Source of the DNA: an uncultured Candidatus Micrarchaeota archaeon
GTDB taxonomy: Archaea > Micrarchaeota > Micrarchaeia > Anstonellales > Bilamarchaeaceae
Length of the DNA: 64,000 nt
Direction of reading: 5' to 3'
Assembly (NCBI GenBank): GCA_963714085.1
Contig: OY970229.1
Location: 992,001-1,056,000 of the forward strand
Position 1 is the first letter of the stretch; each line of letters begins with the position of its first letter. A program made the translations under genes and the position numbers. This document shows positions 10,221 through 31,273 of this stretch, piece after piece. The notes beneath the pieces are model-generated. The model did no database searches and was not told where the DNA came from. It was given only the letters and a program-made list of their open reading frames with translations.

Positions 10221-10904
10221 TTAAACATCGGGCGTTTCCCGTATGACCTCAGCGCATTCGCGGAATACCCGCTTCCTTCTCATCAGTTCCATGAGGCCGC
10301 CCTTGTAGAATCGGCTGAACTGAGCTGCCGCGAACGCCTGCATGACATCGCTTTTCGTGAGCGCGGCCTCTGCCATATCTCTGGCCGGTTTTGATTTCGC
10401 CTTGCCGGCTTCGTCCTTGAGGAAGGAGGTTATGCTCCCGGAGCACCACGCTTCCATGAGCCTGAACTCGAAGCCGAGTTCCTTTTCTTTCAGCTCTCCG
10501 CTCAAGTAGGACATTATGATCTCGACCGCCTGGAGCAGCGCGAAGCTGTCCTCCGTTTTAGCGGTGACCAATGCGGCGTACCTCTCCAGCCGCGCTCTTT
10601 TGTCCGGTTGGAGCTTCGCCTCGGCCAGAGCCCTCTTCGCCGCCTCGAACTTGTCGAGCGTCGTTTCCTTCGGCCTGATTCCGTAGACGCTCGCCACGTG
10701 CATGGCCCTTTCCGCGACCAAGGGATCGACAGTGCGTATGTTCCCGAAAGGAACGACCTTGTTTCCCGCAGCGCGGGGCGCCTTCGCCTCTGGCATGCAC
10801 CATACTTGCCTGCCAAAGTTTTTAATCCCCCTCGGAGCGCGCGCCGGCTCCTCTGCCTGCCGCAATGCCGCAAGATACGCTAGTTCTGGACGACCACCAT
10901 ACAT
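10221..10904 (-). CDS. hypothetical protein (start may be 10796)
   Basis: ORF with host-like codon pattern; no motif recognised. Confidence 0.6.
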   Translation of the reverse strand: MYGGRPELAYLAALRQAEEPARAPRGIKNFGRQVWCMPEAKAPRAAGNKVVPFGNIRTVDPLVAERAMHVASVYGIRPKETTLDKFEAAKRALAEAKLQPDKRARLERYAALVTAKTEDSFALLQAVEIIMSYLSGELKEKELGFEFRLMEAWCSGSITSFLKDEAGKAKSKPARDMAEAALTKSDVMQAFAAAQFSRFYKGGLMELMRRKRVFRECAEVIRETPDV

Positions 10905-11626: not shown

Positions 11627-13255
11627 TCAGCCTGTTCTGTTCCGGGTACGCGTAACATTCACGATTGGATTGCCGGATTCCGGCGCCCTGAAAGTCTTAT
11701 TCCATGCGCGGTGCTCGCTGCAGAACGTCTTGCCTGGGTGTTCCAAAACCCTTTGGTGCAGTTCTTCACGGAACACCCGTTCAAGGCCAATGACCTGCTG
11801 TGCATCGTTTCGTGCCACATGCCCGATGCAAGTCCCCCGCGTTCCAGGGGAAAAGCAGTGAACCGTAAGCGCGCCGTCAGACCGCACAGTGAACGGAGGA
11901 ACCTCCCCGGTGTGCCCGAGGCCTTTGCACATGGCCAGCTTTCCGCGGTCGGCAAAGGAGGTGTTGTCGTACAGTCCAAAGTCGCGGCGTATGGCGTTTG
12001 ATATCATGGAAGTCAGTACGTCCGCGCTGCAGTCCGTAACCGAAGCAGGCATTTTTTCCAATCCTCTTCCAGAAGAGCCGATCAAACGCATCGGGTAACC
12101 ACCATGAGCGAGTTCCAAGCCATACTTCTGCTGAAGGGAAGCGAACCTTCCCTTGGTTTCAGCTTCATTCTCCTTGGAGTACATCACGATCACATCCTTT
12201 TGGCACGGCAGCCCCGAAAGGAGTTCGAATGTTTCCTCCATGGACTGCACGTAACGGTCGATGCTCCCAATGTCTTTGAAGAAGAAGTTGAAACTCACGG
12301 TTATCGCTATGTCGGAAGCATAAGGCCCCAGGCTTCCCAAACCCTCCAAAACCCGCACTCCGGCCTTTCTATTCTGCGGTATGAGCCCGGCAGTGGTGAA
12401 TTGCACCCCGACCGGCCTGGCAAAAAGGATTTCGCGGATTGCATCAGCCAGGTTTTTCCCCTCTTCTCCGCCCTCGTAGAGCAACACCTCTCCGTCACCA
12501 AGGTGCACCTGCGGCATGAAGGCAATCTGAGGGCTTTCCAGGAGCGCGTGCAGCAGCGCCCAGTCCATCTGCCCGTCGCTTGGACGCGCGTCGATTGAAC
12601 ATCGGGGGCAGCAGCCGAAACACCGTTCGGACAGGTTCAGCCCGCCAATCGGCAGCCTTTTGTCGAGTGTATCCATGTTCACTGCAGGAAGGCTTTCTCC
12701 CCTGCAACGCAAAGCTATCGCATCGCTAAGTCCATCGTAGTACATCCTCTCTTCGACATCGAAGCCGTGCACCGGCCCGCCAAGCCTCCTCAAATCCCTT
12801 TCAAAACCAATCAGCGTTTTCAGGCCGTAAGGGATTGAGTCGAAGTCCTTGCCACACGAAGCATCTATCCAATGGAACCTGAAGAGGCTCTCGAGTATTT
12901 TGAGCGCTGATTCGATCTTCGCTCCTATCTTTTCGCCGAACCAGTAGGAGGCCGGCAGTTCCCTTCGCGCTTTTTGCCCCTTGGCCGATGCGAATTCACG
13001 AAGAGGGGCCTCCCTGAACTCCCGGACCATGGGAAGAACGATGTTCTCCAGGGTCAGCGCGAGCTTGTCCATCGCATAAAAATGTTCCTGCTTAACAGCA
13101 AACGCTAATCCAAGCTCACGTTCTACTGCCCTTGACCTTTCCTGGAATCCGACAATCTCCTGGAACCGTTCTTCCGGGAAGCGCCGGTCTTCGCCGGTAA
13201 GAATCCGCATCACCTTCGCATAGGCGCTGCTGAACGGTGCATAATCAGGCCTCAT
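11627..13255 (-). CDS. radical SAM superfamily protein with long N-terminal extension
   Basis: CFGCCPRC (CxxxCxxC) followed by DGE and TTAG positions; further Cys residues near the C-terminus. Confidence 0.65.
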   Translation of the reverse strand: MRPDYAPFSSAYAKVMRILTGEDRRFPEERFQEIVGFQERSRAVERELGLAFAVKQEHFYAMDKLALTLENIVLPMVREFREAPLREFASAKGQKARRELPASYWFGEKIGAKIESALKILESLFRFHWIDASCGKDFDSIPYGLKTLIGFERDLRRLGGPVHGFDVEERMYYDGLSDAIALRCRGESLPAVNMDTLDKRLPIGGLNLSERCFGCCPRCSIDARPSDGQMDWALLHALLESPQIAFMPQVHLGDGEVLLYEGGEEGKNLADAIREILFARPVGVQFTTAGLIPQNRKAGVRVLEGLGSLGPYASDIAITVSFNFFFKDIGSIDRYVQSMEETFELLSGLPCQKDVIVMYSKENEAETKGRFASLQQKYGLELAHGGYPMRLIGSSGRGLEKMPASVTDCSADVLTSMISNAIRRDFGLYDNTSFADRGKLAMCKGLGHTGEVPPFTVRSDGALTVHCFSPGTRGTCIGHVARNDAQQVIGLERVFREELHQRVLEHPGKTFCSEHRAWNKTFRAPESGNPIVNVTRTRNRTG

Positions 13256-13408: not shown

Positions 13409-13888
13409 ATGATTGCGATGAGCCATCAGGAATCCCGTATACGCGTGAAACTAATCCGACGCAAACTATGCCAATTGCGTAAGGAAAAAGGCAATACCCA
13501 GTCGTACTACCGCGATCTGCCCAGGGCCGCTAAAGAGTGGGCCGAGCGTTGTCCTAAGCTGGAACCTGCCGAGATGAAGTTCGTGCTCAGGACCGTGGCC
13601 GTGCCTGAGGATTACGACAAGGTGGTCGAGCACCTCGGCAGCTGCAGCCCCAAGACCCGCAGGATAGCCGACCATGCGCTCGGCCTATGGGAGAAAGTCC
13701 AGCCCCAGATATCCATGATCACACTGAAGGGCGCTTTTTTCGACGAACGTGGAAAACTCAAATCTCATGATATCGATGCCCTTTTCAGGGAATTCAATGG
13801 TATGATCAACTACGTTCACGATCGTCTCGCCAAAGACGCGCGCATAATGAAGAAAGACCCACAATCAGATTTGTCCGAGCGCAATTAG
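13409..13888 (+). CDS. hypothetical protein, convergent with and overlapping the 3' end of the HicA-tipped giant gene
   Basis: 159-aa ORF with upstream TATA-like CTTAAA. Confidence 0.65.
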   Translation: MIAMSHQESRIRVKLIRRKLCQLRKEKGNTQSYYRDLPRAAKEWAERCPKLEPAEMKFVLRTVAVPEDYDKVVEHLGSCSPKTRRIADHALGLWEKVQPQISMITLKGAFFDERGKLKSHDIDALFREFNGMINYVHDRLAKDARIMKKDPQSDLSERN

Positions 13889-16800
13889 GAAATCCCTCTC
13901 TTCCACGCCTGCCTGCTTGCAGAGCCTTTTTACGAACGCGACCGGTTCCACCCTGTTCTGCGGTATCGAGACTCTCCTTCCGTCCGGGTGCCCGTATATG
14001 GAGTGGCTGGTGGCGTTCTGCCGCTCGAATCTGAAACCCAGCGCCTTGAACGTAGCATTTATTCTATCCGAGCTCAGCGGCTTCCATGCTGCGGCCACGG
14101 GGCGATTCGGCACGATTCCCGCCGGTATGCGCGCCTCGATCAGTCTGAAGTAATCACGGTCCCCGAGGATGATATCCGCTACCTTCTTCGGGTATCCGTT
14201 GTCCATGAGCCATTTTTCCCCTGCGGTGAAACCGCCGTTTCTAACGGCAGCGACAAGTTCCGCGTCTTTTTTGCCTTTCATCTCGGTCTCCCATCTTTGA
14301 CTAAACCTGTCGCCATGCTTTTCAAGTAACTGCCGTATCTCCTCATGGCCCACGCCCTCCGCCCCGAGCATCTGTCCGATCTCATTTGGAGAGAATGAGC
14401 TTACCATCTCGTCTTCCGTAAAACCGATCTTTCTTAGCGCTGCAGGGGTCTTCATCTCAGGAGGCGGAGTCCTCTTCTCCGCCGCCGCATGCGTAGCCCT
14501 GCCCAGCGCATCCTCCGCCGCTGCCCGCATGCCCGGTTTCACGCCCTCCATTGGCGCCGCATCCTTGTCCAGCGCATTCGCGAAGAGTTCGAATCTCCGA
14601 GCCTCCTTCACGCCGCCCCAATTCATGTCTCTGGCAGTGGTCGTTCTGAACCTGAGGTATGCGTCGAACATGACGTTCTCATCCATCTTCATCGCCGCCG
14701 CAGCCCGTCCCAACGCGTCGTCCGTTACCGTGTTCCATCCGACCCCCGCACGTTTGGCTTCCGCCTGCCTCCGGATGAGTTCCGGGTCGGACACACCCCC
14801 TCCCATCTCGCCTCTGGGAATCCCATATCGTTGTTTGAACGCCGCGTCCCTCGTGCGCTCCTCCCTCAGCTTCCGCAGCGCCTCGTCCGCCCGCGGGGCC
14901 TTCCTCGCAGGCGCAGCCTCCGGCGCAGCGCGCTTCAGTATCCTGTGGGGCAGCGCGTAGATCCTGAAAAGCCTGTCCAGCCCGTCTCCGGTCGCGCCGT
15001 TCCGCAGCAGCGCGGGCCGCAGGTCCTCTATGCCGCGCAGCCATCTCTCCTTCTTAGCCTTTATCGCGGCGTCCACGGTCGGCTGGTCGACGCCGTTCAA
15101 TGAAAGATAATCACGGAACGCCTTCTCGTCCGCGACGTGTATGGCGGATATGAGCTTCTTCGCGTTCATGTCCGCCTGAGGGCTGACCGCCTCGGCCGGC
15201 TCGCCGAAAAGCGCGTCCGCCACGCGGTAGCGGCCCTCCCGCACCGTCGGGGTCCTGAATGTCCTGACATCCTTTACCCCGACGTCCTTAGGGACGCTCT
15301 GCAGGAATCGCTGTTCGGTCCTGCCAAGGACCCGGGCCATGACCCCGCTGTCCACAGGACCGCTGAAGCTGAAGCCGAATGCCATGGGACCGGTCTGGTA
15401 TACCGTCACTTTCCCGGAAAGCCCCGCCTCGGCAGCGGCCTTCTCGAACGCTCTCGCGTAGTGCGCGGAGAGCCCGTCCGTGAACGCGCTTCCCGCCACG
15501 CTGTTCGTGACGCTCGGTCCGATGAGGTTCTTTTCCACGGCGCTGACCCCCTTCCCCTTGATCTCGGCGCCGCGCATGAAAGCGGCCCGCGTGCCATCCT
15601 CGAACGCCACGCGGAAGGTGATCGCCTCGTCTATGCGGACCGGGGCGCCCGAGGAGTCGACAGTCTTGCCCTTCACTTCCTTCACAGGATTGCTCATTGC
15701 CTTCGCTTTCGGGGGCTGGTCCCTGTCGAAGGCCGTGGCGGCACGCTCAAGGCGCTCTGCCGCGGCAGGGTCCACAGCCCTAACCTTCTCCACCACGGAC
15801 TTGGACTCCACCGCGCCCACCGCTGCCTCCATGGTCTTGTAATGCCTGCCGTTGCTCGCCAGCGTCCACTCGCGTTTCACGCCGTTCCGGCCCATCGCGT
15901 CCCCGATCCCAGTGAAGTCGCTCAGCGCATCTGCCAGCGCGGGCGATGTGACGCCCATCTGCCTGCTGGCCGCGCGGGCCTCGTCCCTGAAGCGCCCCAC
16001 CACCAGGTCTATTGCCTGCTTCTCGTTTTTGACCGCGAACCTCTCCTTGAGCCGCTGGAAGCCGAGGTCTGAGACCACTATCGTGGCGTCGTCCGCCCCT
16101 GTGCGCACTATGCTGACGCCCTCGATGCCAAGGCCCTTCACCGTATCGGACGCGGCCCTGAAAAAGACTACCAGCCCCAGGTCCCCGTACTCCCCATGGT
16201 CGCTCAGCGAGTTGAGCAGCCATGTCTTGCCCTTGTCGAGCGATATGACCACCCGGGCGTAATCCTCGGTCGCCAGCGGGCTGACCTTCCTGAATGTGCG
16301 GAATACCCAGTTCTCCCTCGCCCTGACCGCATCGTCCAGTCCCCTGAAGACCGGCCCGGCGGTCTCGATGTTGCCGCGCATGCGGTCCACCGCGGAGTGC
16401 AGCGCATCGGCGTTGGACAGCACGGTCTCGTGCAGCGTCTTCCCGGCTATGGTCGGCTGCGCGGTGAGCACCGCCACGTTCCTCGCGAGCGCGGTGCCGT
16501 CTCCGGCCAGGCTCTTGGCTACGAGCGCAGATGCCTGGGGAGGGGCCGCGCGCACCTTCTCCGCAGACAGAGGCGCCTGGTCCATCTGGACGGCGCGCGG
16601 GCGCTCCATCACCGCCTCGGCCTCGCGCCTTCCGGTTTCCGCCATGAGCACTTTCATCGCGTTCAGGTCCTCGTTTCTCCATAGCCCCCTTTTCGGCAGC
16701 CCCAAAGTCTCGCTTTCCTTAGCGACCAGGGCGGCCATCTCCACCGGAGTCAGCTTCTTGCCGCGTGCGAATTTCGCTTCTGCCCCCGGCGTGATCTCCG

Positions 16801-18676
16801 CCCGCAGCTTGTTGACGGCCGCCACCTTCTCCGCAGTGATCCCGAAGGGCAGGCCCTCCGCGCTCTTGTTCACCGTGATGGCCATCTCGACCCTGGCGCT
16901 GCGTTCCCTTGCCGCAGCCGCATCCACCACTGACAGCTTCCTTGGCATGATTGTCTCCCTGCGGGCCTCCATCATCTTCGTGGCCTTGGAATGCACCACG
17001 CCCGCCGCGATCGGAGCCGCGAGTGTGAGCGTGCTGAAGATGGCCTCCTCGAGCGCCTCCCGGCGCTCCATCCTATCCGATTTCGGGGCTACGTAATACG
17101 CTGCCCATGATTCCGCCATGTGCCTCGCCTGGGGCACTGTGAGCGCAGCCGCTGCGCCGAGCTGGGCGAGCCGGAGCATGGACAAGCCCTCGACCGCCTC
17201 TTTCGCGATGCGGCCCGGCGCTCCGAGCAGCGCGACCGCGGCCATGACGCCGGTCAGGGGGGATATCTCCCCGGTCGCGGCATAATCGTGGGCCGTGCCT
17301 TTTATCACGGAAGCCGAGCCGATGACCGGGACGAAGCTGACCAGGACGTCTATCCCCTGGCCGATCCTCCTGACAGTCCTTACGCGCGCATAGAGGGTCT
17401 CGCTGTCGCTTTTGGCGGCCGCGGAGATCGCCGCGGCTTCTTTTTCCGCAAGCGTCGCCTTCCCTCCGGAAAGCAGCGAAGAATAATTCGCGACCAGCTT
17501 CTCCGAATCCGCTATCACGTTCTGCTGGAGCCTTGCCTCGACCGAAGAAAAAACCTTGTCCGAGGTCACCATGCATATCTCGAGCTGCGTCAATGCCGCG
17601 CCGAGCGGTGCGAGGTTCCTGTCGAACCCGCGGATGGAAGCGTCGTATAGGGAAACTAGCGCGTCCCTGTAGAAAGCGAACTGTTTCGTCGGGTCGTAGG
17701 TCCTGTCAGCCGCGCGCCTGACGTTCTCCGCGATGCTGCTCTCGTTGATGTAAAGCCGCGCGAGCACATCCGTCTTGTCTTCGGCCGCGGCCACGAACTC
17801 TTTCCTCACGCCCTTCATGTTCTCCGGCGCGTACTGCATTATGCGCAGCGCTTCCCTGAGATGCCGCCCCGCGCTTTCCAGGTACTCCAGCGCATAGACC
17901 TTGTTGAGGGAATGGTCCGCAGCCTCGGACTCCCTCAGATAAGCCATGAGGCCGTCGTGCTTCTTCAGTTCGAGGAGCAGCAGCTTCGCCGGGTGGTATT
18001 CGACGTCCACAAGCTGCCGGTAGTCCGACTGCAGCTTTTCCACGCGCGCGGAGAGCGCATCCGGCCCGGCCTTCCCTACCTCCCCCCGCAACGCGTCTAT
18101 CTCTTCGATGATGGTGCCGAGCTTCCTGTAAAGCCAGTAGCCGTCGGACCTTTCCGGGGCGTACATGTCCACCAGGCCGCTGTCGCGCATCTCCGTCCTC
18201 AGCCCCTTGACGACCTCGTGCACGGAGCCGAGCTCGCGCCTGAGGTTCTCCGCGGGATCCGAGACGCGCCTGTCCGCGTCCGCTGCGAGAAAGACGGCGA
18301 AGTCGTGGGCATACTGCCGTCTCAGCTTCTCGAACTCCTCTTTCGGCGCATCCCCGCGCACGGCACGCTGGCGTATGGTTTCGAGTTGCCTCTGCTCCTC
18401 CGCAAGCGCGGGCGGCAGCGCGATGTCCGCGGTCTGCGGATGGAATACGCCGAACTTGAGCGATGCGTCGACGCGTTCGGCGCTGCGCACGGTCCCGTTG
18501 GCCGCGTCCATGGCACGTTTCGCCGCAACCTCCGCCATGACAGGGAGGCCGAGGCCGCTGACTATCTTCTGCGTCTGGTCCTTCCCGAATCTCTCTACCT
18601 GCTCATCCGCCCTGGCCAGCCGCTTCGCCACCTTCGTCGCTTCGAGTCCCTGTTCGGCCAAATGCACACCTTTCAT
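13865..18676 (-). CDS. 1603-aa multidomain protein: helical N-terminus, hydrophobic hairpin, degenerate GGDEF-like palms, C-terminal HicA-like RNase
   Basis: Start set at 18676 (ATGA overlap with upstream gene); C-terminus LGFRFERQNATSHSIYGHPDGRRVSIP...LCKQAGV matches the HicA pattern. Confidence 0.75.
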   Translation of the reverse strand: MKGVHLAEQGLEATKVAKRLARADEQVERFGKDQTQKIVSGLGLPVMAEVAAKRAMDAANGTVRSAERVDASLKFGVFHPQTADIALPPALAEEQRQLETIRQRAVRGDAPKEEFEKLRRQYAHDFAVFLAADADRRVSDPAENLRRELGSVHEVVKGLRTEMRDSGLVDMYAPERSDGYWLYRKLGTIIEEIDALRGEVGKAGPDALSARVEKLQSDYRQLVDVEYHPAKLLLLELKKHDGLMAYLRESEAADHSLNKVYALEYLESAGRHLREALRIMQYAPENMKGVRKEFVAAAEDKTDVLARLYINESSIAENVRRAADRTYDPTKQFAFYRDALVSLYDASIRGFDRNLAPLGAALTQLEICMVTSDKVFSSVEARLQQNVIADSEKLVANYSSLLSGGKATLAEKEAAAISAAAKSDSETLYARVRTVRRIGQGIDVLVSFVPVIGSASVIKGTAHDYAATGEISPLTGVMAAVALLGAPGRIAKEAVEGLSMLRLAQLGAAAALTVPQARHMAESWAAYYVAPKSDRMERREALEEAIFSTLTLAAPIAAGVVHSKATKMMEARRETIMPRKLSVVDAAAARERSARVEMAITVNKSAEGLPFGITAEKVAAVNKLRAEITPGAEAKFARGKKLTPVEMAALVAKESETLGLPKRGLWRNEDLNAMKVLMAETGRREAEAVMERPRAVQMDQAPLSAEKVRAAPPQASALVAKSLAGDGTALARNVAVLTAQPTIAGKTLHETVLSNADALHSAVDRMRGNIETAGPVFRGLDDAVRARENWVFRTFRKVSPLATEDYARVVISLDKGKTWLLNSLSDHGEYGDLGLVVFFRAASDTVKGLGIEGVSIVRTGADDATIVVSDLGFQRLKERFAVKNEKQAIDLVVGRFRDEARAASRQMGVTSPALADALSDFTGIGDAMGRNGVKREWTLASNGRHYKTMEAAVGAVESKSVVEKVRAVDPAAAERLERAATAFDRDQPPKAKAMSNPVKEVKGKTVDSSGAPVRIDEAITFRVAFEDGTRAAFMRGAEIKGKGVSAVEKNLIGPSVTNSVAGSAFTDGLSAHYARAFEKAAAEAGLSGKVTVYQTGPMAFGFSFSGPVDSGVMARVLGRTEQRFLQSVPKDVGVKDVRTFRTPTVREGRYRVADALFGEPAEAVSPQADMNAKKLISAIHVADEKAFRDYLSLNGVDQPTVDAAIKAKKERWLRGIEDLRPALLRNGATGDGLDRLFRIYALPHRILKRAAPEAAPARKAPRADEALRKLREERTRDAAFKQRYGIPRGEMGGGVSDPELIRRQAEAKRAGVGWNTVTDDALGRAAAAMKMDENVMFDAYLRFRTTTARDMNWGGVKEARRFELFANALDKDAAPMEGVKPGMRAAAEDALGRATHAAAEKRTPPPEMKTPAALRKIGFTEDEMVSSFSPNEIGQMLGAEGVGHEEIRQLLEKHGDRFSQRWETEMKGKKDAELVAAVRNGGFTAGEKWLMDNGYPKKVADIILGDRDYFRLIEARIPAGIVPNRPVAAAWKPLSSDRINATFKALGFRFERQNATSHSIYGHPDGRRVSIPQNRVEPVAFVKRLCKQAGVEERDFLIALGQI

Positions 18677-18993
18677 GCGTTCTCGTATTCGTAGCAGATC
18701 TCGACGAATTCGCGCAGCATGTCGATGCGGTCTTCCCTTCCGGCGCGTCCTGCGCGGAGCACGGAGTATTCCACGCCCCATCTCACGAGCGCCGTGCGGA
18801 ACCTCTTGAGCCTCTCTAGGGTCGGCGCCATGTTCCTGGGCTTCACCTTCGCGGCGTTCCATGCGGACATCGCGTTCTCTATCACAGAAACAGTCCTGGC
18901 CGCGTTCCTGAGAGTGTCCGACTCTATCTCGTCCAGCTTCTCTTCGGAAACGGTCGCTCTTCCACCGCCCTGCCGCGGCGCAATGGTTGCCAT
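18673..18993 (-). CDS. small hypothetical protein translationally coupled to the giant gene
   Basis: 106 aa; its stop overlaps the next start; TTTAAA ~25 nt upstream. Confidence 0.7.
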   Translation of the reverse strand: MATIAPRQGGGRATVSEEKLDEIESDTLRNAARTVSVIENAMSAWNAAKVKPRNMAPTLERLKRFRTALVRWGVEYSVLRAGRAGREDRIDMLREFVEICYEYENA

Positions 18994-22505: not shown

Positions 22506-24365
22506 ATGGTTTCGCTCGAGGAGAACAGGGTAAGGATGAACTACGAGGTCGCGGTCTACCGCGAGCAGCTCACCATGCTCCGCAGGGAGATGGAGAGGGT
22601 CTCGCTGACCACCCTGGACCTCACCAGCGCGGTGCAGGCCGTAAACGGGCTCAAGAACTCGCAGATACTCGCTCCGATAGGGGGCGGGGTGTACGTGAGG
22701 TCCGACATAAAGGACACCCGCGTGATCGTGCCTATCGGCGCCGAGTTCGCCGTCGACATGGAGAAGGGCGAGGCCGCGGCCGAGCTCCAGCGCAGGGTGG
22801 ACGCCACGCGCCAGGCTGTGATGAAGCTCAACGAGGAGTTCGAGAAGATAAACAAGAAGCTCCGCGAGGTCTCACTCAGCCTCCAGGAGGTAGAGCAGCA
22901 GCTTCGGATAAGCAAGCAGGTGGATGCCGGAGTGAAAGAGGATTACATCCGATTTCCCATGTTCGATTTCCTCAAGAAGAAGATAAGCGGCTTCATCGAC
23001 GGCTTCACTGGCAAGGAGGAGGCGAAGGCCGGGCCGGAGCCAGTTGAAAGAGAGCCCGAAGTCGTAGAAAAGCCAGAGCCGGCGGTTGAAAGGGAAAAAC
23101 CGGAAACAAAGCCGGAACCGATTTTTGAAAAGCCCGCGGTCGAAAAACCGCAGGTGAGAGCCGAAGCGAAGCCGGAACCGGTTGTCGCGAAGCCTCAGGC
23201 GAAGCCCGCGATTCAAACCAAACCCGTAGAGCCGAAGCCCCTGCCCGCGATTGAAACGAAGCCAATACTCGAAAAGAAAAAACCGGAACCAAAGGCGAAG
23301 CCCGAGCCCGTAATCAGGAAAGAAAAGCCTGAAACCATAGAGACCAAGCCCGCGGCCGAAAAGCGGAAGCCTGAACCGAAAGCTGTTCCTGAGAAACCGA
23401 AAACCGAAACGAAGCCCGAGCCCGCGGTCTCGCTGCCGCAGTTCCGCGAGGAGAAGGAGCGGGCGAAGAAATCCGCGGTCTCGTTCAGCCCGCTCAAGGC
23501 CATAAGGACGCTGGTGAGCCGGGAGGTCGAGATCTCCGAGGACGATGTGAAATCCCTGCTGGAGAACTTCGAGCTCGAGCTCCTAGAGAGCGACGTGGAG
23601 CTGAGCGTGGCTGAATCCATAAGGCAGGAGTTGGCGCAGAAGCTTGTCGGCGCGAAGGTGGAGAAGGCCAATCTCAGCCAATTCGTGAAGCAGGCAATAG
23701 CCACCACCCTGGTGGACACCATGTCCGTGGGGGAGCCGCTGGACATGCTCGGATACGTCAGGGATAGGGAGAAGCCGGTTAAGATAGTCTTCCTGGGCAT
23801 CAACGGGGCCGGGAAAACCACCACAATAGCAAAAATGGCCAACATGCTCATGCAGGATGGGCGCACGGTGGTGTTCGCGGCCGCGGACACGTTCCGCGCC
23901 GCGGCCATAGAGCAGATGGAGGTCCACGCGGCGAAGCTCGACGTCCGACTCATAAAGAGGGAATACGGCTCTGACCCGACATCGGTTGCCTACGACGCGG
24001 TGAATTACGCGAAGGCGCACGGCATAGACGCGGTGCTGATCGACACCGCCGGCAGGCAGGACACCAACGTGAACCTCATCAACGAGCTCAAGAAGATGGA
24101 CCGCGTCATCAAGCCCGACCTGAAGATATACATCGGGGAGTCCATAGCCGGCTCCTCCATAATCGGCCAGGTGTCCTCGTTCAACCGGGAGATAGGCGTG
24201 GACGGGGTGATACTCACAAAGCTGGACTGCGACCCAAAGGGCGGCACAGTGCTCTCGGTGTCGAAGGCGACCGGCATACCCATAATCTACATCGGGACCG
24301 GCCAGAAGTACGAGGATATCGAGCGCTTCGACGCGAAGAAGATGGCAGAAAGGATAATCTCCTAG
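22506..24365 (+). CDS. pfdA-ftsY: in-frame fusion of prefoldin alpha (22506-22949) and SRP receptor FtsY (from ATG 22959)
   Basis: PIGGGVYV and VPIGAE prefoldin hairpins; MFDFLKKKIS FtsY start, GINGAGKTTT, DTFRAAA, DTAGR, TKLD, KGG. Confidence 0.9.
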   Translation: MVSLEENRVRMNYEVAVYREQLTMLRREMERVSLTTLDLTSAVQAVNGLKNSQILAPIGGGVYVRSDIKDTRVIVPIGAEFAVDMEKGEAAAELQRRVDATRQAVMKLNEEFEKINKKLREVSLSLQEVEQQLRISKQVDAGVKEDYIRFPMFDFLKKKISGFIDGFTGKEEAKAGPEPVEREPEVVEKPEPAVEREKPETKPEPIFEKPAVEKPQVRAEAKPEPVVAKPQAKPAIQTKPVEPKPLPAIETKPILEKKKPEPKAKPEPVIRKEKPETIETKPAAEKRKPEPKAVPEKPKTETKPEPAVSLPQFREEKERAKKSAVSFSPLKAIRTLVSREVEISEDDVKSLLENFELELLESDVELSVAESIRQELAQKLVGAKVEKANLSQFVKQAIATTLVDTMSVGEPLDMLGYVRDREKPVKIVFLGINGAGKTTTIAKMANMLMQDGRTVVFAAADTFRAAAIEQMEVHAAKLDVRLIKREYGSDPTSVAYDAVNYAKAHGIDAVLIDTAGRQDTNVNLINELKKMDRVIKPDLKIYIGESIAGSSIIGQVSSFNREIGVDGVILTKLDCDPKGGTVLSVSKATGIPIIYIGTGQKYEDIERFDAKKMAERIIS

Positions 24366-24476: not shown

Positions 24477-26303
24477 ATGGGTGATACCACTTTCGCCCCG
24501 CAAAAGAAACAGGGGGAGACAGCAGCACGGAACGCGGCACTCGAGGCCGTGCCCCAGAAGAAGGAAGTGGAGAAGCTGCGCGGTCAGCTCAATGCCCTGG
24601 ACCGCCAGTACGACTTCCTGAAACAGAGGTTCGACAGCACCTGGGCCACCAACGACCGGACAGTGAAGCTAGAATCGATGTTCCTCGGAAGGAAGCCTAA
24701 CGACGACGAATTCCTGGCCATGCTCATGAACGCTGGCATGGGCGGGGAGAAGCCCATAACCAGCCAGGTCGAGAAGCTGCACCAGCAGTGCTCGGAGCTG
24801 TTCAAGAAGCTCCTGGACGCGGGGCTCGACAATTTCGCAGGCACCGACGTTTATAACCGTGTCTTCATCGGCAACGACCCGCGCTGGCAAATCGTCGTCG
24901 AATCGGCGACCGACATGCACGTCTCCTGGGGAAAACAGCAGAAGCAGCTCATGAAAGACCTCGAGCCCAAGCCCTACCCAACCATCGGGGCGCGGGAATG
25001 GGAGCCACCTACCGTGGAATTCCCTAGAACCGGGGTCGACCTGCTTCACGGGGAGAGAGTGTTCGTGGGTGAGGGCGGCAGGGTGGTCCCGGAGTCCGTG
25101 CTCACGCTGGAGCGCGAAATCAGGCGCAGGGGCCGTGTGACGCCCAAGGGCGTGAGGGTGGAACTCTCCTTCCAGGAGTTCTACGACATGTTCGTGCCCG
25201 TGCTCCCTTCCCTGGACGCCGCGATAACCAATGTCCAGGTGATGTGGGACAAGGGCGTGAGCGCGAAAGGCGTGGTTAAAGTCGTATTCAATCTCGTCAT
25301 GGCAGGGGTCGACGTGGTGCTCGTGGGCCAGCTCGCGACGAAGAGCGCCGCGCGCCTCAGCGGCAGGGAACTGATGGACTCATTGGAGAAGACCGAAGGC
25401 AGGTCCTTCATGTCCAGGCAGGAGTGGGACGTGCTCGAAACCGCGATCCGCGAGCTCAAGCCCGGCGAAGTGAACGACCTGTTCAGACTGGCGAGGCCCG
25501 CGATAGGCACAGGCTTCGATTGGACGGTGTTCGAGGAGCTGGCGCTCAGGGCAGGAGACGAGGAGGTAAGCGGAGACCTGATCCGTGCCTATCTGCGCGA
25601 GCAGACCGGTGCGACGAGACTCAGCCGCGCGGCCTGGAGGCTCAAAGCCGGCACACTTGATTTCTGCGAGAACGGGCTGAGCCTGCTCGGAAGGGAGAAG
25701 TTCAGGAAAAGAGTCGCCGCGGAGATATTCAACGAGCTCAGGATGAGCATCGACCACAAGGCGTCGAAGAGGCTCGCGGAACTTCTTGTGGAGTCGGGCA
25801 TGCCCGAGGCCTCCCGGCATCTGGCGTCCGATGCGATGTTCAGTACGCTCACCTCATTCAGCAAGGCGCCGCAGCGTGCCCTGCTCAAGCTCGTGGAGAA
25901 AGAGGGCTGGCCCAACGTCGTGGCCAGGCTGAAGAAGGACGGCCTTGAGAAGATGCTGCCCGAATACGCGGCAGCGTTCCGCTACGCGCCCATGCACAGG
26001 CTGGTGGAGTACGGTGTGTTCCGCGCGACGTTCCCCTATGCGGTGCAAGCGGTCTATGGCGTGATAAGCGACATGTCCGCGAGCAAGGTGAAGGAGCCGG
26101 AGATACTGACGTACGATGACATGCTCAGGAATTATTTCGAATCCATGCACAGATTCGGGAAACCGCTGACTCTTACGGAAGAGGAAAGACGCAGGAGATA
26201 CTCCGACCTTTCCGATAAATTAGGGAAACCGACCAAAGAGGACATACGCAAGAGATACTCTAAAGTAATGGATGAATTAGAAAAAAACGGTATGAAGAAG
26301 TGA
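24477..26303 (+). CDS. hypothetical protein (608 aa) with central hydrophobic hairpin; first gene of the giant-protein operon
   Basis: Long ORF, TTTATAA ~25 nt upstream; DMFVPVLP...VVFNLVMAGVDVVLVG segment. Confidence 0.8.
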   Translation: MGDTTFAPQKKQGETAARNAALEAVPQKKEVEKLRGQLNALDRQYDFLKQRFDSTWATNDRTVKLESMFLGRKPNDDEFLAMLMNAGMGGEKPITSQVEKLHQQCSELFKKLLDAGLDNFAGTDVYNRVFIGNDPRWQIVVESATDMHVSWGKQQKQLMKDLEPKPYPTIGAREWEPPTVEFPRTGVDLLHGERVFVGEGGRVVPESVLTLEREIRRRGRVTPKGVRVELSFQEFYDMFVPVLPSLDAAITNVQVMWDKGVSAKGVVKVVFNLVMAGVDVVLVGQLATKSAARLSGRELMDSLEKTEGRSFMSRQEWDVLETAIRELKPGEVNDLFRLARPAIGTGFDWTVFEELALRAGDEEVSGDLIRAYLREQTGATRLSRAAWRLKAGTLDFCENGLSLLGREKFRKRVAAEIFNELRMSIDHKASKRLAELLVESGMPEASRHLASDAMFSTLTSFSKAPQRALLKLVEKEGWPNVVARLKKDGLEKMLPEYAAAFRYAPMHRLVEYGVFRATFPYAVQAVYGVISDMSASKVKEPEILTYDDMLRNYFESMHRFGKPLTLTEEERRRRYSDLSDKLGKPTKEDIRKRYSKVMDELEKNGMKK

Positions 26304-26307
26304 TGTT

Positions 26308-29300
26308 ATGGCAGAAGCCCAAAAACCGCCTGAGGAGGAGCCCCCGAAAGTGAAAACACCTGCGCAACCACCGCCCGCGCAACCACCCGCGGAACAGAGA
26401 CAGCTTCCGGCGTTGACCAAGGCCAAGAGGTATGTGTTTGGCTATGACCCTGCCAAGGCAAGCGCGACCGCGGCGGGCAAAGCCAGGAAGGCACATGACA
26501 AGGCGGCAGCGAAGGCTGCGAAGAACCTAGCCGGCCCATCCGTGTACGCCGACCTGGAGGAGATGAAAACCCTCTGCGAGAAATACCGGAAGGGAATAGA
26601 TTCGTTGAGGCCTGCTGACGCGATAGAGCTGATGAAGAAGATCTACGTGCACTTGGAGACCGGCACTCTGGACGCGGACACTACGAGTTCGCTCTATGGA
26701 ATACTGGAGCGGCTCTACCTGCGGCCGAACGTGCTTGCAGCCGTTAATAGTTCTACGGACCCCATCGTCGCCAAGGGTTTCCGCCAGCATCCGGGTATGC
26801 GAGAGGCTCTCGAGAAACATATCGCCCGCTCAGCTGCAAAGAAAAAATTGACTCCGGCAAATTATCAGGACCTCGCACGGCTCAAGCCCGAGATGCGGAG
26901 GCTTGAAAATGACCAGATAATCCGGATGGCAAGGATAATAGGGAAAGACGAGGCAGACCCTGTCGCTGCCATCACTAGGTCATTCGGCGTCGGCGCCAAA
27001 GCAACCACACTGCCCGAGCAGGCGGCCCTCATGCTCGAGCTCAATTCCAAAGGGATAGTGACGGAGAGAGCGGTGGCTGAATTATACATCAATCATGCGG
27101 ATAACGCAATAGCTGCTTTGGGGAAGATGAGAACAAGTGACGCCGCGACCCAGCGCGTACTTCTGGAGATTCAAAATGATATCCTCTCCGGCAAGGTCGC
27201 CAGCGCGGACGATGCTATAGTCGGGATATTCAAGAATGAAAAGCTCAGGGAAGACCTCCAGAAGATTCTCGGTCCGGGATCCAAGTCGTTGCTCGATGAG
27301 CTCTCGAAGGCAACTAATCTGAAGGAGATGGCTGCATTGCTCAAAGGGGTGGAGAAGTTTCCTAAAGGTGTACCTAACCCGGAGCGTTTAGTAAACGCCC
27401 TAAACAGCTTTGCGGTTCCTCTCAATGCAGAACACTTCATAAATAACCTGAGTGTTATGGGTAATCGGGTCGAGCTTGTCGGCGCGCTCCAAGCAAGGCG
27501 CGTGCTGGACAGCAGCACAACGGAGATGTTCAATGCGGTACGTGCTCTCAGCCTGCAACGGGCCAAAGACATGAGGGGCCTGGGCCCGGCTGCGATTGAG
27601 ACAAGCACGAATGCCGTCGTGGGAGGGGCTAAGCTCGTCAAGTTCGGGCTCTCACCAGTCATCGCGCCAGGAACCAGAGCATTCGAGAATTTCGCGGAAG
27701 CCGAAGTCGCTAGTGTGAGGCCGAGAAAGATCATCAAGGGCACTCTATGGACTACCGCAGCCGTAGGCTCGTTTGCCTTGATGAGCTGGCTCGTATACCA
27801 TTTCGAGTGGGGCAAGGACAAGACCGAGCGCGAGGAGGCCAGGCTGAAGCTCCAGAAATTATGGAAAGTGAGTATCACCACCGCCACTGCCAACAGCATA
27901 AGGGACTCCCCCATCGCGGACGGGTTCTTCAGGAACTGGTTTGACATCCACTCGCTCGAAAAACTCGGGTCCCGTCTCGTGCCGAAGAACGATAAGGAGC
28001 TCAACGAGCTGCTGACAGAGGGAGGATCCTCGGCGTCAGCTAAGAAGCAAGTGCCCCTCTACGTACACCCGGCTTGGATAAACGAACTGGCCGCAGAGGT
28101 CGACGCACAGATAAAGGACATGAAGAAGCAGGGAAAAACCGACACTGAGATAAAGGCAGCGCTTACCGCCATGGTTACGACCAGCTGGAGGGACAAGGGT
28201 TATTTCCTGACCCCAGGGGAGGCTTTCATAGAGAGCTTCGCAAGGGACCTCTTTGGAAATGACCCTGAAAAGCGCCCCATGATAGATTACATGAAGGCCG
28301 CAGTGCTCGGCGAAAAGAAACCAGAGACCAGCGTCAAGAAACCAGAGACCAGCGTCAAGCACCCCGAGCTCTTCACGCTGCTTTGGTCCGGGATACGCGA
28401 CGGCTCGCTGCCGCGTACCTTCGCCGCGGACGTCGCATTGAACCTCTACGCTATAATCAGCGACGACACCCTGGATCCTAAGACCGGCAAGATCAAAGGC
28501 GAGCTGGCATTCGAGAGAATAAAGAAGCAATTGGAGGTGCGGAAGGCCGCGGTCTATCCGAACCTGCCTTCTGTGCGGGACACCCTGGCCAAGGCAGAAA
28601 TAACCGACCAGTACCTGCTCAAGAAGCCGATACCGCCCGGCTCGCTCATGGATATCTACGACCAGCACGTGGTCGCATCCCATGACGAGGGTATGGAGAT
28701 GGGCTTCAAGGCCGTGCTCGAAGCGTACCAGAGCGACGAGAATACAGCGGCGCGGCTGGATGCATTCAGGCTGAATCCCGACGAGGTGATATATGGGGAC
28801 GTGCCGGATATAGTGGCCCAAGTGGCTGGCGGCACGCTCACACTGGACGCCGCCAGGGACCAGCACGTAGTAGCTGACGGTATATTCGCCCGCTTTAACA
28901 CCATCAACACGGCTTCTCAATTTGACGAGAAGAACAAAGGGCTCATCGAATTCGTCTATGAGAATTCGTCTGTCTCAGCAAACGGAAAGACGCAAGGCGT
29001 GCTGGACTGGCTCAAGCGCAATGCCAAGAACATACGGAACGCCCCGAAGCTGATAGAGGATCTCGAGGCCAGCAGCGCGCTTTTCGCCGCAGCACCCATG
29101 GAAAACACCAACGACAAAGACAACCCGAGCAAATCCCAACTGTGCGACAGGCTTGCCAACCAGCTCATAGCAGGGTATATCAAGGAAGAGAAGGACCGGG
29201 GCATGCTGTCCAAAGGGTGGGGCGCGACCAAAACATGGTGGAGCGGGAAGCCGGAAGAGCTGCCTGAGCGCTGGTACGTGAGGACGAATGAGCCGTTCGT

Positions 29301-29919
29301 GAGCCATACGCCGCGCGACATCATGCCAAGAGGCCAAACCGATGTCGCGCAACCCACTCCAGTGGTGGACGTGACGAGCGCGGCATCGCTCAGGGAAAAG
29401 CTCGGCGTTCTAATCTATCCCAAGAAAAACGAGGCTACGTTCAGCCCGCAGGACAAACGGGTGAGGGAAGAGGTCTACCAAACTATCGCGGACAAGGCTC
29501 CACAGACCGCCGGCAGGAAAGGCCTCGCCGCTTCTGGAATAGAAGTGAAAGACGGCCCGGTCGGCCTTGTCATCAGCTCTCCTGAGCCAGATGCCAAGGA
29601 ATACCCCGCTTTCCAGAAGCTCGTCAGTGATGCCGTAAAAACCGAGTTGGCCACCATCGCGGTGGAAGACGCCCTGCGCCCGAGCGTGACTGCCGTGCTG
29701 AAGTCCGATAAATCCGAGAAGCCGAAGCACATCTCCGATGTCATCGGAGCGATAGCTGGTGTGATAGTGGACGGTACAGACCAGGAGAACGCAAGGCTCT
29801 CCAAGAACGGCATCAACGTGACGCGGAACAGGAAAGGGGTCCTGGTCGTGAAGGTGCCGGAGGCCACGGAAAATTTCCAGAAGTTAGTCAAGGGCATGGC
29901 AGCCGAGGTGCCCAAATAA
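26308..29919 (+). CDS. hypothetical protein (1203 aa) with one probable TM helix
   Basis: Long ORF 4 nt after the previous stop; TLWTTAAVGSFALMSWLVY hydrophobic segment. Confidence 0.8.
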   Translation: MAEAQKPPEEEPPKVKTPAQPPPAQPPAEQRQLPALTKAKRYVFGYDPAKASATAAGKARKAHDKAAAKAAKNLAGPSVYADLEEMKTLCEKYRKGIDSLRPADAIELMKKIYVHLETGTLDADTTSSLYGILERLYLRPNVLAAVNSSTDPIVAKGFRQHPGMREALEKHIARSAAKKKLTPANYQDLARLKPEMRRLENDQIIRMARIIGKDEADPVAAITRSFGVGAKATTLPEQAALMLELNSKGIVTERAVAELYINHADNAIAALGKMRTSDAATQRVLLEIQNDILSGKVASADDAIVGIFKNEKLREDLQKILGPGSKSLLDELSKATNLKEMAALLKGVEKFPKGVPNPERLVNALNSFAVPLNAEHFINNLSVMGNRVELVGALQARRVLDSSTTEMFNAVRALSLQRAKDMRGLGPAAIETSTNAVVGGAKLVKFGLSPVIAPGTRAFENFAEAEVASVRPRKIIKGTLWTTAAVGSFALMSWLVYHFEWGKDKTEREEARLKLQKLWKVSITTATANSIRDSPIADGFFRNWFDIHSLEKLGSRLVPKNDKELNELLTEGGSSASAKKQVPLYVHPAWINELAAEVDAQIKDMKKQGKTDTEIKAALTAMVTTSWRDKGYFLTPGEAFIESFARDLFGNDPEKRPMIDYMKAAVLGEKKPETSVKKPETSVKHPELFTLLWSGIRDGSLPRTFAADVALNLYAIISDDTLDPKTGKIKGELAFERIKKQLEVRKAAVYPNLPSVRDTLAKAEITDQYLLKKPIPPGSLMDIYDQHVVASHDEGMEMGFKAVLEAYQSDENTAARLDAFRLNPDEVIYGDVPDIVAQVAGGTLTLDAARDQHVVADGIFARFNTINTASQFDEKNKGLIEFVYENSSVSANGKTQGVLDWLKRNAKNIRNAPKLIEDLEASSALFAAAPMENTNDKDNPSKSQLCDRLANQLIAGYIKEEKDRGMLSKGWGATKTWWSGKPEELPERWYVRTNEPFVSHTPRDIMPRGQTDVAQPTPVVDVTSAASLREKLGVLIYPKKNEATFSPQDKRVREEVYQTIADKAPQTAGRKGLAASGIEVKDGPVGLVISSPEPDAKEYPAFQKLVSDAVKTELATIAVEDALRPSVTAVLKSDKSEKPKHISDVIGAIAGVIVDGTDQENARLSKNGINVTRNRKGVLVVKVPEATENFQKLVKGMAAEVPK
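28315..28359 (+). repeat. perfect 21-bp in-frame tandem duplication (KKPETSV x2)
   Basis: aagaaaccagagaccagcgtc x2 followed by aag. Confidence 0.9.
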
Positions 29920-29931
29920 GGAGGGAGTGGC

Positions 29932-31248
29932 ATGGCAGATAACGAGACTAGGAAAAAACTGCGTGCGTTCCTCGATGCCCTTCCCGACGAGAAGAAAGAA
30001 CCGCAGGGGAAAAACAAAGCCGAGCCGCCTACGACGATCAAGGGCGCGACGCCGAAGCGGATGCACGCCGAGAAACCACCCCGGCAAGAGAAGCCGGCAA
30101 AGACCAAAGCCGGGCGCGCCGCGAAACCAACAGCGGAAGCGAAACCCGCAGCCGAGGCGAAACCCGCGAAGGAGTCCAAGCCCATGAAGGTCGTCATGCC
30201 GACCGTGACGAAGGCGCTCAGGGGCCACAATCCGAGCGCCATAATATCCCTCGCAAGGACCAAGGACGGGCTCGAGAACCTGCTCGCGGCGGGCAGGAAC
30301 CGCGAGACGGTCTCAGCGATCATAGTCAACGGCCTGGCTGCCGTGATGAAGGCCAACGGGCTCGAGAGCCCGAAGGAACTCATCCTGAACGCCAGCTCGG
30401 ACGTGAAGCGCATGAGCCTCGTGAGGGGCTTCCTCCAGAGCTATATCGGCCCTGGCAACGAGCTCTACCAGAAGGAGATCGTGCCGCTCAAGAAATACAA
30501 GAAGGACGAGATGGGCGCTCCGCTCGACGCGGACACGGTCGTGGCAGCCGCGGACTACCTCTGGCGCTGGAGCAAGAACAACCCGAAGAACCAGCTGGAC
30601 CTCACTCCGACCCTCCCGCAGGACAAGGCGAAGGAGGTGCCGTCCATCAAGGCGCCCGAAGCCAAGGCTGACGACTCAGTGCTCGCACAGGCCAAGGGCA
30701 TGCTCGACCTTTCGACCTCGGCCAAGGCATCCGACCTGCTCAAGCTGATCCAGGACGCTGAGAAGAAAGGCGGGGCGAAGCTCGAAGACGCCAAGACCAT
30801 CGCGGTGCAGGGGCTGTTCAACGACCTCAAGTCGCACGATAGGGGTTTCACGGCCTACCTGGAGATGTTCTCGCGTTACGACACGATACGGGCGCAAGCC
30901 GATAGTCTGCGCACAGACAAGGTCGACCCGAGGGCAGACCTAGCATTGGAAGGCATCATCGGATTCCTCAACCAAAGGGCGAACATCGGCGTGTGGAGGA
31001 TAGAGAACCTCAACTGGGACTTCCGCGCGCTCAATCTCGAGCTGGGCAGGAAAGTCCCGGAAAACGGGGGCACCACCCTTCCGAAGGACAAGCCGCAGTT
31101 CGCCGATGCGCTGCTCGGCTGCGCGGTCTTACGATGGCGCCAGGCCAACCCGACCAAGGACGGTGGCGCATGGGCGAGGCCGCCGGAGCCAAAGAAGGCC
31201 GAGGAGCCGGCGTCCAAGAACAGCTGGCTCATGGAGGGGCGGCATTAA
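29932..31248 (+). CDS. hypothetical protein (438 aa) with internal two-fold repeat
   Basis: GGAGG SD; Lys/Pro/Ala N-terminal linker; duplicated module. Confidence 0.8.
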   Translation: MADNETRKKLRAFLDALPDEKKEPQGKNKAEPPTTIKGATPKRMHAEKPPRQEKPAKTKAGRAAKPTAEAKPAAEAKPAKESKPMKVVMPTVTKALRGHNPSAIISLARTKDGLENLLAAGRNRETVSAIIVNGLAAVMKANGLESPKELILNASSDVKRMSLVRGFLQSYIGPGNELYQKEIVPLKKYKKDEMGAPLDADTVVAAADYLWRWSKNNPKNQLDLTPTLPQDKAKEVPSIKAPEAKADDSVLAQAKGMLDLSTSAKASDLLKLIQDAEKKGGAKLEDAKTIAVQGLFNDLKSHDRGFTAYLEMFSRYDTIRAQADSLRTDKVDPRADLALEGIIGFLNQRANIGVWRIENLNWDFRALNLELGRKVPENGGTTLPKDKPQFADALLGCAVLRWRQANPTKDGGAWARPPEPKKAEEPASKNSWLMEGRH

Positions 31249-31273
31249 TAACATACTAAAGGCAGGAATCACC

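Follow-up and report, generated by a model that had tools for sequence, protein, structure and literature searches.

Single chains that pair a palm domain carrying metal-binding acids with a second palm lacking them are known from Cas10/Cmr2 and from class III adenylyl cyclase pseudo-dimers, and immunity genes do not usually lie in convergent orientation. In bacteria, HicA is found at the C-termini of polymorphic toxins, including S8-PTS BetaH toxins and an RHS toxin, according to the accessible part of the published description (PMC9424270). Kinase, GNAT, RelA/SpoT, GGDEF and Pol-beta nucleotidyltransferase domains belong to the stock of conflict cargo, as far as the available portion of its survey goes (PMC5512222), and GGDEF proteins are also known in archaea, where c-di-GMP is given as not yet detected in the accessible text of another account (PMC13725321). 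Little is settled about how DPANN archaea act on hosts and rivals, and the locus described here, found in a window of 64,000 nucleotides (the whole stretch of DNA analysed) from an uncultured Candidatus Micrarchaeota archaeon, bears on it (Table 1).

We propose, with a probability of roughly 60%, that the 1603-aa protein P0001 belongs to a family of giant modular proteins in Micrarchaeota that share their front and exchange enzyme-like cargo, and that it is likely delivered into host or competitor cells as a multi-effector toxin. The reading as a weapon delivered into neighbouring cells relies on the front part being shared and the rear parts being swapped between relatives. P0001 has at least three modules, HicA among them, and the most conserved is a GGDEF-like nucleotidyltransferase fold. 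A literature search of main article texts found no description of this family.

Table 1. Coordinates of P0001, its modules and associated genes in the window
Feature	Positions	Strand	Basis or remark
227-aa gene, possible accessory	10221-10904	-	Homologues in four other giant-gene loci
159-aa gene, candidate immunity or partner gene for domain Y, possibly for the tip	13409-13888	+	Inside divergent block
P0001, 1603-aa modular protein	13865-18676	-	Stop-free reading; syntenic 1613-aa orthologue in G001
HicA-family tip with His1558	13865-14086	-	PF07927 above cut-off; PDB 1whz
Domain Y (aa 1415-1515), directly before the tip	14132-14434	-	29% to G001; also in G318
Breakpoint and variable linker (aa ~1247-1410)	14447-14936	-	blastn and protein comparison to G001
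Probable palm 2 (aa ~1017-1157)	15206-15628	-	Motif and secondary structure
Palm 1, GGDEF-fold domain (aa ~764-961)	15794-16387	-	AlphaFold2, VIA-align, hhalign
Gly/Ala-rich hydrophobic helices, predicted membrane-insertion segment (aa 440-563)	16988-17359	-	Kyte-Doolittle
N-terminal carrier (aa 1-430)	17387-18676	-	Helical by sequence impression; without signal-peptide-like hydrophobic stretch
106-aa helical partner gene, translationally coupled	18673-18993	-	Family marker; 81% identical in G001

A sequence-only reading of this DNA had described a 1603-aa ORF tipped with HicA, and this description held: the frame is open throughout, the tip matches Pfam above its cut-off, and an independent genome, G001, has a syntenic orthologue. 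The same reading recognized the tip and the carrier, but its picture of the architecture was incomplete, as it overlooked the core (aa ~764-1255) and the pre-tip domain of about 100 aa that we call domain Y. The ATG of the ORF lies on the stop of the 106-aa gene in a 4-nt overlap (ATGA). An alternative in-frame ATG upstream would lengthen P0001 to 1665 aa; the G001 orthologue begins at the start residue of the 1603-aa form. The locus is chromosomal and lies between MFS and fibrillarin genes, in an order conserved in two species (G000 and G001); its neighbours are housekeeping genes or genes of unknown function, with no delivery machine in the locus. A word search with the whole protein returned P0001 itself and one orthologue only, and a pattern scan of the genome contigs with P0001 gave no match.

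The N-terminal part of P0001 reaches a hydropathy maximum of 1.08, and Pfam and NCBIfam matched neither a trafficking domain (RHS, LXG, BetaH) nor a signal peptide in the protein. Moderately hydrophobic helices follow at residues 440-484 and 545-563 (Kyte-Doolittle peaks of 1.4-1.6), and most relatives have similar hydrophobic segments upstream of their cargo. That C-termini might vary among N-terminal homologues had been put forward as a check, and they do: a 1255-aa protein of G259 shares 52% identity over aa 26-655, after which a kinase-like module follows with no palm core, P0017 likewise joins the carrier to a kinase-like module, and P0023 has the carrier at 26% to P0001, no core, and a RelA/SpoT end (RelA_SpoT, E 1.6e-15). 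Other family cargo includes Metallophos (6 of the 33 sequences scanned), PolyA_pol (1/33) and, as a weak hit, a CHAT peptidase. Cargo thus differs between close relatives, and a chain may hold two or more unrelated enzyme domains, the palm core and HicA in P0001 and up to several in relatives. In a quick tree of the core, from which length filters skipped two rows and duplicates were left out, a clade of seven (SH-aLRT 99) comprises three members with no tail, one with a cut tail, one with a kinase-like tail and two with GNAT-like tails. Note that the evidence for the kinase-like and GNAT-like labels consists of motifs, atlas scores below 0.9 and one hit at E 0.039; the kinase-like module has no match in Pfam or PDB, so that its label stays at motif level, and its single-sequence model is poor (pLDDT 40.6), which makes a fold search with it not meaningful.

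The 106-aa family occurs in 46 of 75 same-family genomes, with up to 10 copies in each, and in its best 30 loci the small gene is directly followed in 28 by an ORF that stays open to the end of the locus. The small upstream gene and the giant ORF therefore occur together, and they do so whatever the cargo. A role of the 106-aa protein in immunity against HicA, considered in the sequence-only reading, is not supported and was rejected, since the gene precedes giant ORFs with any cargo. The protein is likely instead to assist the carrier as a chaperone or in export. It has no identity in Pfam or PDB, including no match to WXG100, and its resemblance to a WXG100/Lap-type export partner consists of size and helical look only. 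In addition, the family of the 227-aa gene is found near a giant gene in G001, G192, G029 and G113, and in none of 20 further loci.

The rear end of P0001 and the 159-aa gene, which is convergent and overlaps the end of the ORF by 24 nt, constitute one sharply bounded divergent block relative to G001. By blastn, similarity runs at 79.6% from position 22956 down to 14936 and comes back only at 13410; aa 1256-1410 give no significant protein alignment to G001, and GC3, at 0.81-0.86 over aa 1-1255, is only 0.62-0.70 over aa 1411-1603 and 0.64 in the 159-aa gene. The 159-aa protein stands at 40% to its G001 orthologue, whereas eight other neighbours stand at 58-91%. Together with the one carrier and its varying C-terminal cargo, this block supports the polymorphic architecture suggested earlier. 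Lying within it, the 159-aa gene is a candidate for the proposed immunity function, but HicA as the target is weakened by a third homologue in G318, which is convergent to a protein carrying domain Y (recurring there at E 2e-8) and a non-HicA tip. By co-occurrence the family adjoins domain Y in 3/3 loci and HicA in 2/3, and it thus tracks the former; the 159-aa protein has no homologue in a large protein database. The G318 tip is RelE-like by eye only, a label without Pfam or PDB support, and the core-like stretch of the same protein is not significant (hhalign 0.5%). In 9 of 11 loci, genes with a kinase-like module face a member of a second small family at their 3' end, again as a co-occurrence; this family is absent from the present genome, where no kinase-like module occurs, and in two loci the small gene is present with no kinase-like module detected. 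Small convergent genes accordingly co-vary with particular cargo.

Residues ~764-1255 are the conserved core of the family and the best conserved part of P0001 (73-81% to G001). The AlphaFold2 model of palm 1 (pLDDT 87) superposes on diguanylate cyclases in VIA-align (Z 11.7, rmsd 2.8 Å, 140 residues aligned), and hhalign gives 97.4% against true GGDEF proteins. Palm 1 has D814, N822 and D832, and G-A-D862-D863 in place of GGDEF; D814, D862 and an acid at 863 are kept in 30/30 alignment rows, N822 in 29/30 and D832 in 26/30, and we take these residues, from the alignment, to bind metal and read the base. PF00990 gives no hit for P0001, and all members scanned fall below its cut-off of 23.8 bits, the best relatives reaching 22.5 and 16.6. 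The second half of the core is probably a degenerate second palm, to judge from motifs and predicted secondary structure: the latter is compatible with a palm, the GGDEF acids are missing, and K1042 (30/30), N1058 (30/30) and D1067 (28/30) are kept, with hhalign to palm 1 giving only 26% (E 7e-4). The structural aligner lists for the core were filled by palm 1 matches and did not reach palm 2, and ESM Atlas returned no usable hit for the core. The last helices of the core resemble colicin E1 in a profile comparison (E 9e-4), which is probably a match of helical composition. In many relatives the protein is short, about 560-720 aa, and consists of the core alone, and some genomes with these do not have the 106-aa family.

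It is conceivable, if unlikely, that P0001 stays in the cell that makes it and serves there as a defence or stress module anchored in the membrane, in which the palm pair would produce a nucleotide as a signal and the infected cell would be arrested by HicA or by another cargo. The absence of a signal-peptide-like stretch from the hydropathy profile agrees with this, as do the joining of a nucleotide-cyclase fold to toxin-antitoxin-type domains, the weak Foldseek rows of the core for Cas10/Cmr2 and soluble adenylyl cyclase, and a HicA-like paralogue in G395 that sits ahead of a HicB-like gene; this genome also encodes a diverged core that stands alone, without a carrier, as would suit a cellular enzyme. 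However, the core is dispensable, since of 20 giant ORFs that follow the 106-aa family only 2 have it, self-arrest needs neither carriers of thousands of residues nor cargo-specific convergent genes, and comparison of the window's proteins with PADLOC gave no match below E 0.003.

Searched alone, the tip (residues 1541-1591) matches PF07927 HicA with 32.3 bits (E 1.1e-7; cut-off 27), full-length P0001 scoring 26.6 bits against the same cut-off, and PDB entry 1whz is matched at E 1.6e-6. The histidine noticed in the sequence-only reading was borne out as the conserved HicA histidine, His1558 (codon 14003-14005). No HicB partner was found in the rest of the genome either: PF15919 and PF05534 are without a match at E≤1 in the genome contig (87.65% complete), in which the tip of P0001 is the sole PF07927 match. 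That this histidine is kept and the Pfam cut-off passed although no HicB was found tells against a further possibility, namely that a palm-pair enzyme on a membrane tether is the working part and HicA a recently captured, possibly inactive RNA-binding appendage. We regard it as quite improbable, even with the core being the best conserved module and the P0001 and G001 tips giving no blastp alignment. The G001 tip has drifted past detection (no HicA match in Pfam or NCBIfam) and carries a 13-residue insert, its histidine being placed by eye only; most core homologues end without a tip, and in a G395 protein a HicA-like stretch is seen by eye to be without the histidine. The different domain at the tip position in G318 also speaks against an appendage of this kind and is as expected of an exchangeable effector slot.

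The fusion as an assembly artefact or chance read-through has a negligible probability and was rejected: none of the short-read contigs listed is shown bridging core to tip, but in G001 a single uninterrupted ORF of 1613 aa lies in the same gene order and includes domain Y and a HicA-like tip, and run X1, which may be the source sample, covers 30/30 bins at ≥99% with no joints. The genome itself is a single 1.57-Mb contig. Runs X2 and X3 hold small shares of the sequence, which are no evidence of habitat. No RNA run was among the holders of the sequence that were listed, which carries no information on expression.

Several observations count against the preferred reading: a locus among housekeeping genes that holds no delivery machine, a G001 tip beyond HicA detection, kinase-like and GNAT-like labels at motif level, the short core-only relatives, some of them in genomes lacking the 106-aa family, the stand-alone core of this genome, two loci in which the kinase-linked small gene has no kinase-like module detected beside it, and the unusual convergent orientation of the candidate immunity genes. 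Taking this reading of P0001 as a delivered toxin, the 106-aa protein would accompany the carrier to an export route that is dedicated to it and independent of Sec, and the hydrophobic helices would enter the target membrane and take the C-terminal part across. Palms 1 and 2 might then pair within one chain as a pseudo-dimer and, at a single metal site, link two nucleotides (probably guanine nucleotides) to each other, which could drain NTP or jam nucleotide signalling, while the HicA tip would cut RNA. The convergent 159-aa protein may shield the producer and its kin from domain Y, and perhaps from the tip. More tentatively, and as something we hold possible rather than probable, Micrarchaeota may have a lineage-wide effector-delivery system not previously described, consisting of a marker gene of about 100 aa, carriers of 1,200-7,700 aa, shuffled enzymes and convergent cargo-specific immunity genes, one cargo being a GGDEF pseudo-dimer within one chain that produces a nucleotide messenger in the host archaeon. 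If true, such a system would give DPANN archaea the molecular means to subvert or kill the cells to which they attach. The 106-aa marker gene finds the whole family, and the cargo and partner genes are small and separable and can be tested in laboratory strains, with no need to grow the archaeon itself. The tandem GGDEF-like core, as an enzyme family that Pfam misses, has invariant predicted catalytic acids and a directly assayable product, and bears on archaeal nucleotide messengers.

P0001 shares with HicAB pairs (PF07927 with PF15919/PF05534) a HicA domain with the conserved histidine; unlike in these pairs, the domain is fused to 1530 residues, and filing as HicAB was rejected for a 1603-aa fusion that is not a small stand-alone toxin next to hicB. 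With GGDEF diguanylate cyclases (PadC 5llw, GcbC 5euh, WspR 3i5c, PleD 1w25) it has in common the palm 1 fold (Z 10-11.8), the first Asp, the N and D positions that read the base, and a pair of acids where the GGDEF turn lies. It differs from them in the canonical GG[DE]EF motif, which reads GADDA in P0001 and [GAS]-D-E in most relatives, in its probable degenerate second palm and in having no sensor domains; the GADDA motif and the lack of a PF00990 match led to rejection of filing as a canonical GGDEF protein. Like Cas10/Cmr2 and class III adenylyl cyclases, the core would pair an acid-bearing palm with a probable acid-less one, but in contrast to Cas10 the active palm comes first and the Foldseek rows are weak (E 0.015-0.05, rmsd 14-23 Å); filing as Cas10 was rejected, there being no type III CRISPR-Cas gene context among the neighbours.

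The SPEARE proteins of Nanohaloarchaeota are giant proteins of DPANN archaea as well, and an action on host cells has been proposed for them. In the accessible part of their description they have laminin-G adhesion, serine protease and restriction-like domains and a membrane anchor, none of which was matched in P0001, and their intracellular part is the most conserved and is not swapped, unlike in the P0001 family (PMC6642349). Polyvalent proteins of phages and conjugative elements, as far as the available portion of the survey describes them, resemble the family in carrying several enzyme domains per chain from the same stock, and differ from P0001, which is chromosomal in housekeeping synteny and has a hydrophobic segment, a dedicated small partner and no ArdC-N, MPTase or helicase match (PMC5512222). 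Compared with bacterial polymorphic toxin systems in the accessible part of their account, P0001 is archaeal, has no known trafficking domain matched, serial cargo domains and convergent partners, and no S8 peptidase in its locus; like them, its family has a conserved N-terminus, an exchangeable C-terminal toxin-type domain, a HicA tip and small neighbours that vary with the cargo (PMC9424270). A shared carrier with exchangeable cargo is found here, together with C-termini from known toxin families, PF07927 in P0001 and RelA_SpoT in a carrier homologue.

The open reading frame of the 1603-aa protein P0001, its coupled upstream gene and its convergent neighbour were all found as the sequence-only reading had described them, in the window at G000:C1:992001-1056000 on a single 1.57-Mb contig whose genes flanking the locus, named from their translations, presumably belong to archaeal housekeeping (fibrillarin, pyrB, ribosomal proteins, FtsY). 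The tip is indeed a HicA by Pfam (32.3 bits versus a cut-off of 27) and by its match to PDB 1whz (E 1.6e-6), and the claimed absence of HicB held across the genome (completeness 87.65%), where two HicB models gave no matches. The fusion is real, because G001, a genome of the same genus, holds an uninterrupted, syntenic 1613-aa orthologue in identical gene order, which also disposes of the misassembly that had been raised as a possible objection. Short-read contigs of the sequencing run X1, possibly the source sample, covered 30 of 30 bins to at least 99% with no joints, the tip being unbridged among the pieces listed.

Features of the locus and of related loci (window positions unless a contig or locus is named)
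Feature	Position	Strand	Observation
P0001	13865-18676	-	1603 aa
106-aa gene	18673-18993	-	upstream, coupled
159-aa gene	13409-13888	+	convergent
542-aa gene	11627-13255	-	CxxxCxxC motif, presumably radical-SAM-like; GC3 0.64; no Pfam match; missing at the corresponding place in G001
Prefoldin-alpha-like/FtsY frame	22506-24365	+	in-frame, 619 aa in total; fusion or lost stop; FtsY is a separate 467-aa ORF in G001
Four consecutive large unknown genes	24477-36271	+	608, 1203, 438 and ~1700 aa; no significant Pfam match; a similar large gene adjoins FtsY in G001
Stand-alone core	G000:C1:1368756-1370369	-	outside the window; diverged, ~520 aa; lacks a carrier; the core profile matches each half
Split giant gene (G306)	L067:3158-20839		single TGA inside palm 1 gives 2699 + 3193 aa
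Giant protein (G318)	L083:2328-9842		CHAT/caspase-like segment, kinase-like module, domain Y, RelE-like tip (by eye); both convergent gene families adjoin
Neighbouring paralogues (G395)	L073:4115-7641		alike in the N-terminal domain; the C-terminus is the core in one and, by eye, a HicA-like stretch in the other, with a weak HicB-like gene (E 8e-4) after the latter
7702-aa open frame (G185:C2)	L052/L053		core together with two kinase-like modules and, by eye, an HD-like motif; poly(A)-polymerase head domain at the C-terminus; second giant gene (5879 aa) directly upstream
Short core-only genes	L029, L048, L049, L050, L058, L059, L060		tightly coupled same-strand genes of ~100-190 aa come next
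Canonical stand-alone GGDEF proteins	L063, L076, L077, L078		intact motif; four genomes of the same class

Sound as to ORF, tip and neighbours, the sequence-only description overlooked a core: P0001 is matched in 7 of 61 genomes, its own counted, and what the more distant of these have in common is aa ~720-1220. Across the phylum, a profile built from 30 core sequences matched 33 of 401 genomes (E<=1e-5); four of the matches are ordinary GGDEF proteins. The predicted structure of aa 748-1254 is confident (pLDDT 87.1), and its first half (palm 1) resembles diguanylate cyclases (Z 11.7, rmsd 2.8 A, 140 residues) and class III cyclases (Z ~7); all 30 aligned core rows have D814, D862 and an acidic residue at position 863. 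In the second half, K1042 and N1058 occur in all 30 rows and D1067 in 28, mostly Gly-Pro is found at the positions expected for acids, and hhalign gives a weak match to palm 1 (26%, E 7e-4); we read it as a putative degenerate second palm. Diguanylate cyclases act as dimers in which each domain binds one GTP, and in Cas10 an active palm is joined by an inactive one. With a single metal site, such a palm pair would form one phosphodiester bond per cycle, and the N/D positions suggest guanine specificity. The small genes coupled to short core-only genes may encode partners of the core or proteins conferring immunity to it.

The C-termini of homologues vary, as the sequence-only reading had proposed to check, while the carrier is kept: a G259 protein has 52% identity over aa 26-655 and then a kinase-like module (a label given by motifs and atlas neighbours scoring <0.9), and the carrier homologue P0023 has RelA_SpoT (E 1.6e-15) as its last domain; neither contains the core. 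Where the core is present, the tails behind it run from 0 to >3,800 residues. Seven of 39 cores placed in a quick tree form a clade (SH-aLRT 99) of three proteins without a tail, one with a cut tail, one with a kinase-like tail and two with GNAT-like tails, the last label being given by a single match of E 0.039. Pfam scans gave Metallophos in 3/17 and 3/16 sequences and PolyA_pol in one; the G318 giant protein has a weak CHAT-peptidase match (E 0.0014).

The 106-aa profile matched 57/401 genomes at E<=0.001, its weakest matches (long ORFs, E >1e-4) being probably chance; 46 of 75 genomes of the same family carry it, in up to 10 copies. Among the best 30 loci, 28 have an ORF whose start lies between -32 and +18 nt and which has no stop before the locus ends. 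Behind 20 copies chosen non-randomly on long contigs, some also among those 30, the next ORF spans 1,255 to >6,500 aa in 19 cases and 379 aa in one, none with an N-terminal hydrophobic stretch >1.0, and carries the palm core (2/20), a kinase-like module (8/20) or a GNAT-like module (2/20). The gene thus tracks the carrier, whatever cargo comes behind, and its proposed role as immunity for HicA must be abandoned; the core, present in two of 20 giant ORFs, is therefore itself optional cargo.

P0001 and its G001 orthologue share 64-81% identity in five segments spanning aa 1-1255 and 29% over aa 1411-1525, with no significant alignment for aa 1256-1410 and 1526-1603. DNA similarity of ~80% stops at 14936 and restarts at 13410, so that the divergent block, of lower GC3, is exactly the last ~350 codons plus the 159-aa gene. 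The G001 tip resembles HicA by alignment alone and has no Pfam or NCBIfam match. The 159-aa protein and its G001 orthologue are 40% identical, versus 58-91% for eight other neighbours. Among 400 other genomes one match was found, in G318, also convergent to a giant gene with domain Y but another tip; the family therefore tracks domain Y at 3/3 loci and HicA at 2/3, which weakens its proposed role as immunity for HicA. At 11 loci the 3' end of the giant gene is faced by a member of a second small family, and nine of these loci have a kinase-like module, a count that omits three further kinase-bearing loci without 3' flank sequence. These counts for the convergent genes are co-occurrences among kin.

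We favour, at roughly 60%, a delivered multi-effector. A partner protein would escort the carrier, the helices would insert into the membrane, and behind them would come an enzyme that joins nucleotides, then domain Y, then an RNase, with convergent genes conferring immunity; the target may be host or rival, and the effect killing or modulation. G019, G010, G082 and G140, in which no member of the 106-aa family was found, have short proteins made of the core and a single hydrophobic segment; these and the stand-alone core of G000 speak against a simple carrier-cargo picture. A self-directed defence module appears unlikely, and a tethered enzyme with HicA as an inactive appendage more unlikely still.

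No description of the P0001 family was found in the literature searched. PMC13725321 deals, in the portions consulted, with canonical archaeal GGDEF proteins, and its text contains neither "Micrarchaeota" nor "tandem"; the portions of PMC6222260 consulted proved not relevant. P0001 fits none of three known types: the HicAB pair, the canonical GGDEF protein and Cas10. According to the portions consulted, bacterial polymorphic toxins can bear HicA tips (PMC9424270), the cargo stock of the P0001 family matches the one seen in polyvalent proteins that mobile elements encode (PMC5512222), and the giant SPEARE proteins of DPANN archaea are proposed to target hosts (PMC6642349). P0001 is like polymorphic toxins in combining a conserved front with exchangeable cargo, and by this architecture it would work like one, with putative export, immunity and toxicity.
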